DNA of 64,000 bases from Lobosporangium transversale (lineage: Eukaryota), in assembly GCF_002105155.1 (NCBI RefSeq), contig NW_019029001.1:62001-126000 (forward strand), given 5' to 3'. The notes under the pieces are model-generated. The model made no database searches. It was not told where the DNA came from and was given only the letters and a program-made list of their open reading frames with translations. Both the position numbers and the translations under genes were made by a program. Shown piece by piece: positions 8,459 through 16,109 of the stretch; positions within the stretch are counted from its first letter, which is position 1; each line of letters opens with the position of its first letter.

Positions 8459-8595
8459 AACTGCAATGAGATTTCCTTAGTTTTTTACTAGAGAGCCTCC
8501 ATGGCTGGCAGATTTATACTACAACAATAAATAAAGTTCGTTTTCCCTTTACGTGAAGGCTCGCTCAAATTACAAGCGATAGATATACCCAAAAG

Positions 8596-11152
8596 GATGA
8601 AGTTATTTACACGGGTCCGTACACACCTTATTTACACTGCTCCCCGGGTCTTTATTTCATCTACAAGCGGCAGCGTGTATCCTACAGATTACATGATTCT
8701 AGCTTTTTATTTCGAAGGAGATAAGCGAAGGTCAGTCTAGAGTAGAGGGGAGTCTGGAATTGTTACTGTTGGGAGTTGCAGCGCCGTGGGAGCTGTGATA
8801 CTCATCGCGCTCTGTTGATATTCCACAGTATGCAATATTATGATGGCCTAGCTAGAAAATAATTAGGAAAATACTGAGTAAAAAACATCAGTGTGCTAAA
8901 ACGATTAGCAGTAGAAATTAGTGGCAATAACGCGCCACACAAAGACGCGATAAATCTTTGATATGAAGTATTTAGAACGAACCTGTGTCATCCTACAGAT
9001 AGATAGGTAGTTACCTGGTATAGGTCCCTCTACCAGAAAATGAACAAATACCCCATGGGTGTGGTGTGTGGACCCATATCTTATTCTCACTTACTTTTCT
9101 ACTGCTTACTATCTATCTACAAAATATTTTTCACGCTCTATTCCGCTCTACAGTCACCCGAAAGAAAGTCTGGTCAAAGTGGGTTATTTATTATTATTTT
9201 TTAATTTGAATCTCTGACAAACATCTCATTTGTGACATAAAAAATACTTCACCAACCAAGATGGAAATTTAGGTTTTTTATTAATGAGGCCAATGTGGAT
9301 AATCACTGAAGTTTCTGAGCAGTACATGCTGAGGGAAAACGGCAAGAAATAAGGATTGAAGACAGTGTTTCTCTTCATTACCATTTCGAAATTTTATTTT
9401 TTTGACCAAACTTTCTTTCAGATGATTGTACAACATGAAGCTAGTCCCTAAACGCAGTGAGCATCTACATATGCTACTGAGTATGCGACACTGCGTGCTA
9501 AAGACGACCCAAGGCAAGTTCTGGCTATTACTGGTGAAAAATCAACCCTGATTGAACATGATAACAAACTTGGAATGTAATGAGACAAAAATAAGGACCT
9601 TTATCAACGCAACAGAAAAGAGTATTTATGCCTCTTTCTATCACTATAAGTCACGGTTATGCTATTAAAGTATTTTAGCTATTTAGATATAGGGATATAG
9701 GTAATTGTGCAGGATCGACTTTGAGTGCGAACTGTCACCAACTATCAAAAGATAAGTAATCTCTCGGGTTACAAACAGGTGAGAGGATAGACATTCCACA
9801 AAATAAACTGAAGTCTACCCATTATATTTTAGTGAATTTGATAAATAAAATTTAGTATCGAGGGCGCTTGAGCTCTTAATAAAGAAGGACAGAGATAAGG
9901 ACAAAGAAGAAAGGGAAAAGAGAGTAGTAACACGACATGCTATGCATCGAAGCAATGAGTATGATCGTTTAGGATGAAGTTATTTGCACTGCCCCGTACA
10001 CACTCTATTTACACTGCTCCCCCCGTACAAATAAAAAAAAGTTATTTGCACGGGGGGTCTTTTTTTTATTTGCACGGGGTCTCTTTTTCATCTACAAGCA
10101 GCAACGTGTATCCTACAGACTACATGATTCTGGCTTTATATAAATAAGTGGAGGTGAGTCTAGAGTAGAGAGGGGTCTGGAATTATTACTGGTGGAAGTT
10201 GCAGCGCCGTGGGAGCTGCCAAACAGCTCATTTGTGACATACAAAAATACTACCATTAGACCCATATAGCGTATACGATGATTTAAATTACCACTCACGT
10301 GGGGCAGACAAGAACCCTCTCTTTGTCCTCCTTCTTAGTTGGTGCAATGTTTTAACCTAACTGATATAACTTACTATGTATGTAATATGGAGCTAAAGTT
10401 CAATAAATTTACCCTTTTATTAATGAGGCAATGTGGATAATCACTGAAGTTTTTGGGCAGTACAGGCTGAGGGAAAACGGCAAGAAATAAGATTGAAGAC
10501 AGTGCTTCTCTTCATTACCATTTCAAGTGATTGTACAATATGAAGCTGGTCCTTTAGACGCAGTGAGCATCTACATGTGCTGCTGAGTATGCAATACTGC
10601 GTGCTAAAGACGAACCAAGGTAAGTTGGCTATGATAATAAACTTGGAATGTAATGAGACAAAACTAAGGATTGTTGCGATTAGCAGTCATTTATATGGGT
10701 TTTTACTATAGCTAAGGTTTTTACCCTTTTTATTTAACGAAGATCCCTGGATCATAATAAAGACACCTTTCTTTCGTTCTCGCTACTTATTATGACCCTG
10801 GCATATTTCAATAACAGAAAAGAATATTTATGTCTCTTTTCTATCACTATTAGTCACGGTTATGCTATTAAAGTATTTTAGCCACTTAGATATAGAGATA
10901 TAGGTGATTGTGGCACGATCGGCTTTGAGTGCGAACTGTCACCAACTATCAAAAGACAAGTAATATCGGGTAAGAGGATAGATATTCCACAAAATAAGCT
11001 GAAGTCTACCCATTGTATTTTGATGAATTTGATAAACAAAATAGTATCGAGGGCGCTTGAGTTCTTAATAAAGGACGACAGAGATAAGGACATCTAAGAG
11101 GAAAGAAAGAGACTAGTAACATGGCGCGCTATGCATCATAGCAATGAGTATG
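8596..11152. repeat. Diverged tandem duplication of a ~1.2-1.4 kb non-coding unit (copy 1 ~8596-9963, copy 2 ~9972-11152)
   Basis: Shared collinear blocks: GGATGAAGTTATTT.., CAAG(C)..CGTGTATCCTACAGA, GAGGGAAAACGGCAAGAAATAA, CTGCGTGCTAAAGACG, GAGTGCGAACTGTCACCAACTATCAAAAGA, GCAATGAGTATG. Confidence 0.85.
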
Positions 11153-11635
11153 GTAGTATGATTGGTTGTACATCTACCGACACAAACTACACGTTAGAGA
11201 TTCCTAATAACTGAATTCATCGTTGTGTGCTTAATAGTGTGCGGAAATACCTAAGATGTATGCACGCGTTAAATGAAAGAAAGCATCGGGGAACCATAAC
11301 AATGCAACCAACAAAAGTGCAAAGTAAAGCTGCATAGTATATTTCAACTATAGATAAATCATTTGTAATTCTGTATTTAGTCCCAGTCGCATAAAGAATG
11401 CCAACATCTACTCTGAGCTACATACGAACTTGATAAGATATTCTGGTCAGTATTTGATGCTTAGACAGCGACTCTAGATCTAAGCCTGTGTCATGGAAGG
11501 CTTCCTGGTTATGGTGTTTAGGGCTAAAATAAAGACCCCGTACAAATAAAAAAAAAGACCCCCCGTGCAAATAACTTTTTTTTATTTGCACGGGGGGAGC
11601 GGTGTAAATAAGGTGTGTACGGGGCAATGCAAATA
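9981..11635. mobile_element. Putative non-autonomous DNA transposon bounded by ~105-bp inverted repeats built from CCCCGT(A/G)CAAATA motifs
   Basis: 9981-10085 is a near-identical reverse complement of 11530-11635. No TSD identified. Confidence 0.5.
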
Positions 11636-11903
11636 GATTTTTTAAATATTTGTACGGCCCCCGTGCAAATAAGAGGTGTACGGGCCCGTGCAAATATCTT
11701 TTTTCTATTCCCTATTATAGATAAATCGTTTGTAGTTCTTTATTTAGTCCCAGAATCACATAAAGAATATCAACATCTATTCTAGGCTAGATCGGCTTTG
11801 ATAAGTATTCTGGTCAATATTTGATGCTTGGGTATCGAGCTTGTGTCGTGGAATGCTTCCTGGTAGTGGTATTTACGACTGAAATAAAGACCCCGTACAA
11901 ATA
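11349..11903. repeat. ~190-200-bp diverged direct repeat (11349-11548 and 11716-11903)
   Basis: Both copies start TATAGATAAATC and end AAATAAAGACCCCGTACAAATA. Confidence 0.85.
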
Positions 11904-12612: not shown

Positions 12613-12651
12613 TAAGATATATGGGTTGTGCAAAAAGAGCATAGAGGAAAA

Positions 12652-12725
12652 TGTTTGTACTCGGACTCGAACCGAGGACCGTCTGTGTGTTAGACAGACG
12701 TGATAACCAACTACACCATACAAAC
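12652..12725 (-). tRNA. tRNA-Val (anticodon AAC)
   Basis: Reverse complement GTTTGTATGGTGTAGTTGGTTATCACGTCTGTCTAACACACAGACGGTCCTCGGTTCGAGTCCGAGTACAAACA forms a full cloverleaf with A and B boxes and anticodon loop CTAACAC. Confidence 0.95.
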
Positions 12726-13169
12726 AAACCAATTTATAATTTTGTCCTAAATCAAGGTAACTTAAGCTCACGTCCTATAACAAGTGACGTCATGGTAGGT
12801 AGGACCAGAGGTATACCTATAGTGGTACCCTCAAACCCACCCCGTCCTGCCTGGACGTGAGCTCAGCCACCCGATCCTCCCCGCTATAATAAATAGTGGA
12901 CTCTCCGTCCCTGAAGTGGTCCTTACCTTTATCTTGGTACAACACTTCAGGTATGCAACCTCATTCATCTCAGCACTAGTTACTTGTATAGTATTATATG
13001 TATCATAAACTAATAAAGACCTTTATCTTGGTACAACACTTCAGTGTGTTCTATGTATTTGCGTCTCGTTGCGGTTTTTAAGGGCATCTCAGTATAACCC
13101 CCCGGTTCTTAAGACAGTGATTTTTTCAATTGTGTCCTAATCGAGGCAACTTAAGCTCACGTCTTATCT

Positions 13170-13249
13170 GCCCAATGGCTGAGTAGTATACTCGTCAGGG
13201 CACCCCCCCTGTCTAGCCCAGGGGCCGGGTTCGAGTCCTGGTTAAGGCA
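13170..13249 (+). pseudogene. Degenerate tRNA-like sequence (tRNA pseudogene or SINE head)
   Basis: A-box-like TGGCTGAGTAG, T-arm CCGGG-TTCGAGT-CCTGG, hairpin CCCTG-TCTAGCC-CAGGG, and a partial acceptor stem GCCCAA/TTAAGGC. Spacing is non-canonical. Confidence 0.6.
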
Positions 13250-14082
13250 CATAAAAGTGAAGCACACATGTGCCAGGTCAGGGCCGACAACGTGATTTGG
13301 GGCTCTTTGGAAGCGATGTTCAAGGGCGTCAGAGAGATTCGACATGCAAGCACTCTGTTTGGTGAGGAAGATGTGGATATGGGACGGAGGAATGAGGGCG
13401 AGGATGCCCACTGGACTGTCCAAGACTTGTACCACGGTTTGGTGCCGAAGGAACTGATACAAAAATGGAAGACGATCTTCAAAACCACAGCATCGATCTC
13501 AAGGTACATTGTTTGCCGCTTTGTCAAGTCAATCGAGGAACTCGGCAGGACTGAAATCTGGAACAGACGCTGCAAAGTCACCGTCAACTGGGAAAGAGAC
13601 AATGGTATCACCTCTGTGAGCAAACGCGCCAGGGGACGCAACTGTGTTGGGAGGCACAGACATAGCAGAGGTGAATTCTTTGGCTCTCACCAGGGACAAC
13701 GACGAACAGCAGATGTGAAGGCGATCAGGACTGAGGCAGACCGGCGAGTGGCGGAAAGCTACCGGCAACAGGTGGAATTGGCGATTATGGAGCGCCTGGA
13801 AAGCTGTAAATTTTTGATGATTGAGGACAGCGGCTAAAGGATGACCTTCGCGCACAACAGGCCAAGTAGGGAGTAGAGCCGTGCCACAGGTCCTCTGGGA
13901 CCAAGGAAGTCTACTCAATGCTGACGTGGTTTATGAACAGGGTGTAGTACTGTGGCAGTATGACGATGCGGCTTCGGTCGATTATTGGATACCGCTTTAT
14001 TTGCGACCCCAGTAATGGGGCAACCCATTTATAGAGCTAACATCTAAATAAATCCTACATGACCTCGTGGGTCCTTGTTATC

Positions 14083-14109
<27 letters not shown>
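13250..14109 (+). mobile_element. 5'-truncated non-LTR retrotransposon (L1/Tx1-like) copy A: ORF2 C-terminus, 3' UTR and poly(A)
   Basis: ORF 13268-13837 carries LYHGLVP..W..IWNRRCKVTVNWERDNGIT, which I recognise as a fungal LINE ORF2 tail. It is followed by AATAAA, a GACC-N5-GGTC hairpin and an ~A27 tail. Confidence 0.75.
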
Positions 14110-14113
<4 letters not shown>

Positions 14114-14722
14114 ATTGCTCAGAGTTGGAAAGTTGGCTTCAAGACAACAACAAGGATAGCTACATATATGGCGGGGCGCTTCGTCAAGGCCATAGAAGAA
14201 TTCGGTCGTACAGAAATCTGGAACAAACGGTGTAAAGTCACCGTTGAATGGGAAAAGACTCGTGGAATCACTGCTACGAGCAAACGCGCTAGAGGAGGCA
14301 ACTGTGTTGGGGAGCACAGACGTAGTAGCAATGATTTCCTTGTCCCTTCCCTCAGACAAAGACAGAAGCTGAATGTAAAAGAGATCTACAAGGTCGCGGA
14401 TGACCGAGTCCGGGACAGTTACCTTGGGAAAACCAAACTGGACGTGATGGAGCGGCTAGGTGGAATGAAGTTTTTGATGACTATGGATAGCGGATAATTT
14501 GTCGCGTTGCGCAACAGGCCACGTCGGAAAGGTGGACTTTGAGTACCAACCACGGCGGTCAGGGTTTATGAAATCATGGATACAGCGGCTCTTGTCGTTT
14601 GTGCAGTAATAGCTGTTTATTGACTATAGTTTCTGGAGCATTTTGTTCATAGAATGTAGAAAATAAATCCCATGACCCTGAGGGTTCTTGTTATCAAAAA
14701 AAAAAAAAAAAAAAAAAAAAAA
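14110..14722 (+). mobile_element. 5'-truncated LINE copy B (related subfamily), joined directly to the poly(A) of copy A
   Basis: WKVGFKTTTRIATYMAGRFVKAIEEFGRTEIWNKRCKVTVEWEKTRGIT is homologous to the copy A ORF. It has a different 3' UTR but the same terminal AATAAATCCCATGACCC..TTGTTATC(A)n. Confidence 0.75.
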
Positions 14723-14922
14723 TTAGTAAGATCCCATGACCCTGAGCACAATAGGCCAAGTAGGGAGCAGGGCTCGTCACAAGTTCCGTAGGGATCAAGA
14801 GTTACCACTCATGCTGACGCGGTTTGTGACTAGGATGTTGTACAGTGACAGTTCAACGATGCGGTTAAGACCGATTATTGGAAGCCGCTTTATTTGCGCC
14901 CCTAGTAAATAGGGCAACCCAT

Positions 14923-15000
14923 AGGACGCAATAGTCAGACCACCTCCTCGTGGTGCGTCCTGGGCTGTTTGCTTATCTGCAGACAGGCAAAGAGTCTGAC
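14923..15000 (+). ncRNA. HDV-like (CPEB3/R2-type) self-cleaving ribozyme fold
   Basis: P1 AGGACGC/GCGTCCT; P2 GTCAGAC(C)/(GA)GTCTGAC; P3 ACC/GGT with L3 TCCTCGT; P1.1 CC/GG; P4 CTGTTTGC/GCAGACAG; J4/2 G-C-AAA with the catalytic-C equivalent at 14988. Confidence 0.85.
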
Positions 15001-15057
15001 ACTAAAAAAAAGACCCTGAGAGTCCTTGCTATCAAAAAAAAAAAAAAAAAAAAAAAA
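14923..15057 (+). mobile_element. Minimal ribozyme-headed non-autonomous retroposon with a 20-bp TSD
   Basis: Ribozyme + A-tract + LINE terminal tail (GACCCTGAGAGTCCTTGCTATC) + ~A24. Flanked by TAGTAAATAGGGCAACCCAT (14903-14922) and TAGTAAATAGGGCAATCCAT (15058-15077). Confidence 0.8.
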
Positions 15058-15159
15058 TAGTAAATAGGGCAATCCATTTATAGAGTCTATTTCTAATAAA
15101 TCCTCACGACCTCGTGGGTCCCAGCTATCAAAAAAAAAAAAAAAAAAAAAAAAAAAGAA

Positions 15160-15680
15160 TGGGCTCTCTGCTCTGCACAGCGTGATATATCGCCCGTAAA
15201 GTGATCCGCAAGTTCGTTAGCTACCTTGAGTAGCAGGCTATGGAGATGGTTTGGGAGCCACGGCGTAAGAAAACCATTGCTAAGGAGAAGGACCAAGGTG
15301 TGAGACCGAGGCAGAAGCGCGCACCACACGCTGGGCCAAGAGGCGACTGAAGCAACGGATATGGCTTTATGACAGCAGAAGGCTTTTGTCCTTGTGGTAC
15401 GGTAATGGATGCGCATCGCGGCAGGCGCTGTCCAGGATCTACGTTAGATCCGCCTGCCGCAGACAAGGTTCTGTTGCAGAGCTTGTTAGGACAGCGGAAG
15501 TTGACAACCATGGGAAGGATGAGGGCGATTCCTTTCCTGTAACAGTATGTTTTCGACGTTAAACACGGTGATGAGCAGTGGTAATAGTCGCGCGGCACCC
15601 GAAGGACTTGCCGAGGGAACGTGACTAGACTTGTGGCGACTGTAAAGCGATTCTTCTGGAGGATCGGGCATCGAGTACAT
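15160..15680 (-). pseudogene. Frameshifted Cys/His-rich (zinc-finger-like) ORF fragment, possibly the N-terminus of another retroelement
   Basis: YYHCSSPC..FRCPNKLCNRTLS..MRIHYR is spread over different frames in GC-richer DNA inside the TE island. Confidence 0.3.
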
Positions 15681-15929
15681 TCTGACTAGATAGTTCTTCA
15701 GTTTTATAGCGTTATTCGTTTAGAGAGACAAATTGTTATAAAAAAAAATCCCCCCAGAATCCCTTCGCGATCTAGGCTCGTCACCAGCCTGTGTGGCTTA
15801 TGTGCAATGCGCTAACGCTCACTGACAGGCTGGGACCAAACTTGAGGGTCACCATTTTAAATTTCTAGCACTTGGGAAAAAAAAGGTCATTTCTCCTTCG
15901 TTTGTACGACCTAGAATTTTTTTTAAGTT

Positions 15930-16080
15930 TATGAATAGGATGTTGTACTGTGGTAGTATGACGATGCAACTTCGGCCGATTATTGGATACTGCTTTATTT
16001 GCGACCCCGGTAATAGGATAACCCATTTATAGGGCTAACATCTAAATAAATCCTACATGACCTTGTAGGTCGTCATTATC

Positions 16081-16109
<29 letters not shown>
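15930..16109 (+). mobile_element. LINE 3'-UTR-only copy D with poly(A)
   Basis: Highly similar to 13931-14109 (GTACTGTGG..ATGACGATGC..GATTATTGGATAC..GCTAACATCTAAATAAATCCTACATGACC) plus ~A29. Confidence 0.8.

Follow-up and report, generated by a model that had tools for sequence, protein, structure and literature searches.

A 135-bp insertion in a LINE 3' UTR of Lobosporangium transversale joins a predicted HDV-like ribozyme to a 22-nt LINE tail

The window analyzed here, a stretch of 64,000 nucleotides from Lobosporangium transversale (contig NW_019029001.1), contains a tRNA-Val gene on the reverse strand (12651-12726) with a LINE cluster upstream of it in the opposite orientation. This cluster is a stack of 5'-truncated LINE ends (13283-16109), all on the forward strand. 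Piece A (13283-14109) and piece B (14110-14722) each contain an ORF2 C-terminus, a 3' UTR and a poly(A) stretch. Over 52 aa, piece A matches a protein of Lobosporangium transversale with 100% identity. Piece C (14723-15156) is a 5'-truncated LINE 3' UTR that is split by the insertion described in this study. The next piece, D (15157-15749), is degenerate, has 27% protein identity to piece A and belongs to a more distant LINE family.

The insertion (14923-15057, forward strand) lies between two direct repeats, a left copy within the host LINE 3' UTR (14903-14922) and a right copy (15058-15077), which are identical at 19 of 20 positions. The chance of such a repeat at a spacing of 100 to 400 bp anywhere in the window is about 0.002. 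In order, the 135 bp comprise an HDV-like ribozyme fold from P1 through the end of P2 (14923-15000, with A14923 as position +1), the letters ACT (15001-15003), a linker of eight A (15004-15011), a 22-nt LINE 3' tail (15012-15033) and a poly(A) of 24 nt (15034-15057). The three letters after P2 are shared with longer donor copies from public runs (described below), since run records 1, 12 and 18 match up to 15003. The A8 linker differs both from the sequence that follows the ribozyme in a donor copy (record 18 of run X7) and from the letters directly before the tail in LINE piece B. The tail is a terminal hairpin with one mismatch, followed by TTGCTATC. Its nearest LINE subfamily is that of piece B (19 of 22 identical positions), followed by A (17/22), C (16/22) and E (14/22).

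The duplicated stretch is present once in each of two paralogous 3' UTRs, A and E. Removal of the insert and one repeat restores a single LINE 3' UTR in the host, collinear with both (98/117 identity to A and 89/117 to E). Because these empty-site paralogs carry the repeat once, the 135-bp unit is a real insertion that splits an older LINE 3' UTR. An earlier note on this DNA, made from the sequence alone, had described exactly such a unit, with a 20-bp target site duplication (TSD), a LINE 3' tail and an older LINE 3' UTR on either side; its positions, letters and length all hold, as does each of these parts. No TSD was found at the six other poly(A) ends tested in the window, so the length of the unit's TSD has no counterpart among the neighboring LINE pieces to be matched with.

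The anatomy also bears on an origin in two steps or at the DNA level, in which a very short, 5'-truncated LINE end of 22 nt plus poly(A) inserted first and a ribozyme-A8 segment was inserted separately at its 5' junction, or in which the segment was captured during repair. Such a history would fit both the cluster's character as a hotspot where 5'-truncated LINE ends have piled up and the resemblance of the A8 linker to a second poly(A) tail. However, a single TSD encloses the whole unit and none surrounds ribozyme-A8 alone, and a start at the scissile site suggests that the template was RNA. We regard this origin as very unlikely.

The fold is a nested double pseudoknot of the HDV-like type, with a 7-bp P1 (14923-14929/14955-14961), P2, a 3-bp P3 (14942-14944/14952-14954) closed by L3 (14945-14951), a 2-bp P1.1 (C14946-14947/G14962-14963) and P4 (14965-14972/14979-14986), at the base of which G14964 lies opposite G14987. 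The predicted catalytic cytosine, C14988 in J4/2 on the forward strand, aligns to the catalytic-C position of the Rfam models RF00094 and RF02682, and the conserved L3 letters are likewise in register with both. The complete HDV-like double pseudoknot proposed in the earlier note therefore stands, all helices, L3, P1.1 and the catalytic C being aligned to these models. Its P2 (GTCAGAC/GTCTGAC) is correct as a pairing but is better drawn with 8 bp instead of 7, pairing 14934-14941 with 14992 and 14994-15000 and leaving A14993 bulged. Searches with the covariance models (Rfam 15, 14000-16000) gave matches to RF00094 (31.7 bits, E 0.034) and RF02682 (26.8 bits, E 0.023), both under their gathering thresholds of 50 and 44. 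For the whole window the E-values are 1.1 and 0.72, respectively, again below threshold. Compared with the two models, this copy thus differs in its sub-gathering score, its A-U pair at +1 and the bulged A in P2.

An HDV descriptor, which was composed after the site had been seen, matches the window at this one site; in 1595 dinucleotide-shuffled windows it matched 76 loose sites and 4 compact ones. Because compact matches number only four in that set, we judge the fold to be beyond chance. It is complete and HDV-like, and the ribozyme is credible as a predicted self-cleaver. With 20 or 60 nt of upstream flank included, P1 and P4 remain paired, although the probability of the first P1 pair falls to about 0.5. 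Neither the descriptor nor Rfam found a second ribozyme within the 64-kb window. The G.U wobble at the cleavage site is absent, its place being taken by the pair A14923-T14961, and a T stands at position -1 of the predicted cut. In HDV, the G1.U37 wobble is described as favoring activity, with changes lowering it, and U is best at -1 (PMC1874588). Since the wobble is gone though the T at -1 is kept, this copy may, by analogy, be less efficient in cleavage. In a separate search, a gapped pattern matched one site in viral contigs and eight in prokaryote genomes; we rejected all nine as chance, with no P1/P3 pairing by eye and no Rfam ribozyme match among them.

Sister ribozymes were found in public runs, all labelled with the same species as the window, whose contigs were aligned on 14900-15036 (nine contigs in X1, eight in X3, two in X7 and none in X8). 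The tail is absent from seven of the X1 contigs and from all eight X3 contigs, which are ribozyme variants. The nearest sister (X1 record 1) is identical at 79 of 80 positions and has 190 nt of upstream sequence that is absent from the unit. Its homology to the window starts only at 14924, its own G+1 being aligned with 14923, which agrees with the earlier note's placement of the insertion start at ribozyme position +1. That note had also wondered whether the A at +1 marks a drifted or less active copy, and the G in the nearest sister bears out this doubt. X1 record 6 may have an A at +1 too, in an unsure register.

Among the X1 contigs, T14958C occurs in records 2, 4, 5 and 7, the sole set of four records that gives the listed depth. 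As the P1 partner of 14958, record 2 and the consensus of records 3 to 5 have G, and records 1 and 6, both of which have T14958, have A. P2 variants are also changed on both strands. The covarying stems that the earlier note suggested looking for are thus present (one P1 pair and two P2 pairs), as read from loose ends of 30 letters, some being the consensus of two or three contigs, and from depth sums. At least one sister, X1 record 3, also has the bulged A in P2. Judged from these contigs, the sister ribozymes conserve the fold through compensatory changes in P1 and P2.

Non-tail sequence follows the ribozyme on its 3' side in at least three contigs of X1, four of X3, two of X7 and three of a further run, X4, and it extends over 0.5 to 2.1 kb in the four longest X1 and X3 contigs. 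The 190 nt upstream are common to a near-identical group (X1 record 1 and X3 record 9), and a short CCAGGT-like motif lies just 5' of P1 in three other variants. Given these shared upstream flanks and the run-on downstream sequence, the ribozyme is apparently part of a larger repeat or lies at a target that is itself repeated. Summed depth gives about 9 to 22 ribozyme copies in X1, a rough guide since depth is not copy number. After P2, several donor contigs open with ACTCT, the first five letters of the LINE 5' UTR (see below), and the roughly 25 letters that follow differ between the two by eye. On 14923-15003, we thus observe a multicopy HDV-like ribozyme family in X1, X3, X4 and X7, with conserved upstream flanks and long non-tail downstream sequence. 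This points to a putative donor repeat, conserved and ribozyme-bearing, in Mortierellaceae.

The partner LINE encodes ORF1 and an ORF2 with APE and RT domains and has a poly(A) tail. Its full-length relative P0002 combines APE, RT and RNase H, with the RNase H domain at position 1370-1513 of the 1887 aa of ORF2. A relative of the partner LINE is named from Entomortierella parvispora; we take the host and this relative to belong to the Mortierellaceae, and we presume that the layout of the LINE resembles Proto1. The earlier note had assigned the integration to a local L1/Tx1-like machinery. Integration by the local LINE is supported as the probable route, but the L1/Tx1-like label is at best loose in view of the RNase H domain, and we classed the LINE by its domain content.

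A scan of metagenome contigs yielded 15 LINE loci, which come from other organisms. The seven loci with a 5' UTR (L001, L003, L004, L006, L007, L009 and L010) were counted in the analysis of the 5' end, and L002, L005, L008 and L011-L015, in which the 5' UTR is absent or cut within, were left out. L001 has 79.7% protein identity to piece B and 80.6% identity over 139 nt of 3' UTR. An HDV-like ribozyme is present at the 5' end of none of the seven, L001 included, and so the possibility raised in the earlier note that full-length LINEs carry the same ribozyme there is not borne out in these relatives, which are other organisms' loci. With Rfam, no HDV-like ribozyme was found in LINE loci at gathering (eight loci) or at E up to 10 (eight loci), nor did blastn and the descriptor find the ribozyme in any of the 15. 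A covariance model of this ribozyme, run with filters off on the 15 loci, gave 14.4 bits at best, antisense within ORF2. A short pyrimidine-rich 5' UTR is common to L001, L003, L004 and L006, and L006 has just 21 nt before the 5' UTR motif. A LINE-alignment scan found no LINE relative among 93 viral-contig candidates.

These LINE relatives weigh on the idea that the unit descends from one parent by internal deletion, a B-type LINE subfamily having gained a 5' ribozyme and the unit being its two ends joined, as in R2 SIDE, NARTc and RIME. Two weak hints would fit: in run X7, which we guess to be RNA, the near-identical ribozyme contig has a depth of 217 and the LINE-B 3' UTR contig one of 219, and the donor sequence after P2 shares its first five letters with the LINE 5' UTR. 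Yet the ribozyme is missing from all seven relatives, near-identical donors share at least 190 nt of upstream sequence with no poly(A) end, unlike scattered LINE 5' ends, and the A8 linker matches neither side. We consider such a deletion quite unlikely.

Ribozyme and tail are bridged by one of the nine X1 contigs (record 8, 14963-15036, with one mismatch), which confirms the ribozyme-tail fusion in the read data of X1, possibly the window's own source and in that case not independent of it. No contig of X3, X4, X7 or X8 reaches across this junction, and none of X1, X3, X7 or X8 across the 5' junction (14922|14923); these gaps in coverage carry no evidential weight. The depth of record 8 is 39, against 76 to 130 for single-locus contigs, figures that serve as a rough guide only. 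A further X1 contig with a depth of about 53, deduced from the depth table, matches the A-tract and tail from 15004 onward at 90-95% and may represent either another chimera or a very small insertion of the LINE. Collapsed contigs lose rare variants, which leaves room for a few more copies of the unit; on present evidence from the contigs, it would be one locus. The self-propagating family of mini-elements proposed in the earlier note finds no support here, as there is one bridging contig and the other ribozyme contigs run into non-tail sequence.

A mobile family of low copy number would be a form of hybrid SIDE in which a master is freed from read-through transcripts by its ribozyme and copied in trans via its tail, the present locus being a daughter. 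The unit has both parts that such an element needs, its tail has drifted from that of LINE B at 3 of 22 sites, the further X1 contig matches its A-tract and tail, and certain hybrid SIDEs are reported with fewer than five copies (PMC3414825). Against this stand the single bridging contig with its low summed depth (again a rough guide) and the run-on ribozyme contigs of X3, X4 and X7, which enter non-tail sequence. In addition, the nearest sister's G at +1 is replaced by A, at a pair where changes lower HDV activity (PMC1874588), and the mismatched tail hairpin folds with -0.6 kcal/mol versus -4.8 kcal/mol for B (35-nt ends). We therefore hold a mobile family to be unlikely.

The reading that we favor, with modest confidence, is that the unit arose once as a template-switch chimera: having reverse-transcribed its own tail, the LINE RT would have moved over to the self-cleaved, oligoadenylated ribozyme RNA of another repeat. 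A transcript of the multicopy repeat would have cleaved itself at +1. The cleaved RNA would have ended 3 nt beyond P2 and received a short A tail, thereby resembling a trimmed and tailed decay product of a tightly folded core. A B-type LINE complex with APE, RT and RNase H would have nicked the old LINE 3' UTR and started synthesis on its own poly(A); after 22 nt, it would have switched to the ribozyme RNA at its A-tailed end. Copying would have continued to the cleaved 5' end, the last base being untemplated or later mutated from G to A. The outcome would be what the locus contains, namely a product of this anatomy, homologous to two separate sources and flanked by a 20-bp duplication.

The main ground for a self-cleaved RNA template is that the unit begins at the scissile site, within one base, though the donor DNA continues. 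The A8 linker, being unlike either parent, fits a tailed RNA end. Together with the anatomy, the empty-site paralogs, the sister contigs, the LINE relatives devoid of a ribozyme and the precedent of MINEs and SIDEs, this boundary makes the template-switch chimera somewhat probable in our view. Several points speak against it. The three tail differences from LINE B could reflect a separate history, and the nearly perfect TSD contrasts with the lack of any found at the neighboring LINE pieces. The X1 contig with A-tract and tail could be a second chimera, five letters (ACTCT) are common to the donor sequence after P2 and the LINE 5' UTR, and the LINE evidence comes from L001 of another organism instead of the host's own full-length copy. 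Since it carries both a release device and a tail, the unit could in principle move again.

In its structure, the unit combines features of two kinds of known elements. As in MINEs, a 5'-truncated LINE 3' part is joined in the same orientation to a foreign 5' part within a single pair of direct repeats. The 5' part of the unit starts at the predicted cut but stops 3 nt past P2, where the donor DNA continues. As in SIDEs, the 5' junction coincides with the ribozyme start (+1, to within one base), and the 3' end of an autonomous non-LTR element, a poly(A) and a TSD follow. Hybrid SIDEs and MINE chimeras have this same layout at a larger size. Despite the hybrid-SIDE layout, we file the unit as a template-switch chimera because mobility of its own lacks support.

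The R2/R1 hybrid SIDEs of Drosophila, together with the template jumps of R2, provide a precedent (Eickbush and Eickbush 2012, PMC3414825). As described there, they too join a ribozyme and a few nucleotides to a different non-LTR 3' end, with a TSD and no Pol III head. They retain 5 to 8 nt downstream of the ribozyme, compared with 3 here, and R2Dwi_SIDE measures 529 bp, compared with a LINE part of only 22 nt in our unit. They are also multicopy, rDNA-targeted and shown to cleave, whereas the unit is fungal, evident in one copy and predicted to cleave. The MINEs of Magnaporthe grisea are likewise fungal, with a cellular RNA placed 5' of a 5'-truncated LINE in the same orientation, direct repeats of 10-20 bp and template switching as the explanation (Gogvadze et al. 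2007, PMC2104539). Their 5' part is a full-length RNA of 1.1 kb, captured repeatedly (31 MINEs), and the parts of that report drawn on here mention no ribozyme; the 5' part of our unit is in contrast an 81-nt ribozyme out of a longer repeat, followed by the A8 linker. NARTc, RIME and SIDER of trypanosomatids are short non-autonomous retroposons headed by a 77-nt HDV-like ribozyme (PMC4035085). According to the same source, they form abundant families with both ends from one parent LINE and a 5' end that is also a promoter, whereas the relatives of the tail donor studied here have no ribozyme. Further background is found in portions of PMC3774820, PMC6765202 and PMC13708176.

The partner LINE resembles TRE5 and NLTR-B of social amoebae, which are APE-type elements located upstream of tRNA genes in the opposite orientation, and it shares an RNase H with NLTR-A and NLTR-B (PMC5911963). 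Reverse-strand tRNA genes lie about 150 bp from the LINE in L003 (1-330) and L004 (1-325), two of the seven loci with a 5' UTR, as against 39-64 bp in social amoebae (PMC5911963); the likeness is one of layout. In the window, the LINE stack starts about 560 bp upstream of tRNA-Val. A TRE5-like targeting of tRNA genes by this fungal LINE is possible.

A search of the literature on ribozymes in Mucorales, Mortierella and fungal retrotransposons turned up no description of such an element, or of the ribozyme-bearing repeat, in this group. Fungal HDV-like ribozymes are reportedly listed by Ruminski 2011, Webb 2009, and Webb and Luptak 2011, and these papers or their supplements might cover this group. 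Flies, trypanosomes and Magnaporthe already provide examples of the architecture, so a single copy amounts to a curiosity rather than a new class, and the repeat that donated the ribozyme is the more interesting lead. The unit is nevertheless a compact natural record. Because the captured copy starts at the predicted cut, this fungal HDV-like ribozyme probably cleaves in vivo, and some 22 nt plus poly(A) may suffice for this LINE to begin copying. If a chimera, it would illustrate how two unrelated repeats can give rise to SIDEs headed by a ribozyme. A more far-reaching joint reading, which we put forward as doubtful, is that the unit would be the first, or one of the earliest, copies of a minimal SINE-like element and that, in addition, Mortierellaceae would harbor a repeat with an internal HDV-like ribozyme. 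Such an element would be promoterless, 111 nt long plus poly(A), and composed of a self-cleaving ribozyme taken from one repeat and a 22-nt recognition tail taken from a second one. The conserved ribozyme with its bulged P2 would then reside inside a repeat (retrozyme-like or site-specific) and not at a LINE 5' end.

Some minor observations concern the surroundings of the unit. A direct copy of the B tail hairpin precedes piece C (14723-14745), and an inverted copy of its own 3' UTR precedes the full-length LINE in L001 (912-930). These tail-derived extras at the 5' junctions hint that the RT switches template readily. About 30 nt before piece A, there is a tRNA-like head (13177-13250) with a T-arm and A/B-box-like motifs, which ARAGORN reports only below threshold and which has a weak mascRNA match (E 0.044). 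A similar head occurs at 25-97 of L001, followed by a LINE tail at 690-911, and such units are possibly tRNA-headed SINEs or another chimera. Closer to the tRNA gene, a 41-bp duplication (88%; 12738-12778 and 13128-13167) surrounds a piece of 350 bp that contains TATA and AATAAA motifs and may be a solo LTR. The region 8594-11903 contains several direct and inverted repeats of 40-350 bp with 77-95% identity, including an inverted pair of 109 bp (9981-10088 and 11527-11635), which are perhaps DNA transposon remnants. Finally, runs of at least 12 A number 18 on the forward and 10 on the reverse strand of the window, many of them 20-35 nt long and located outside the LINE stack.
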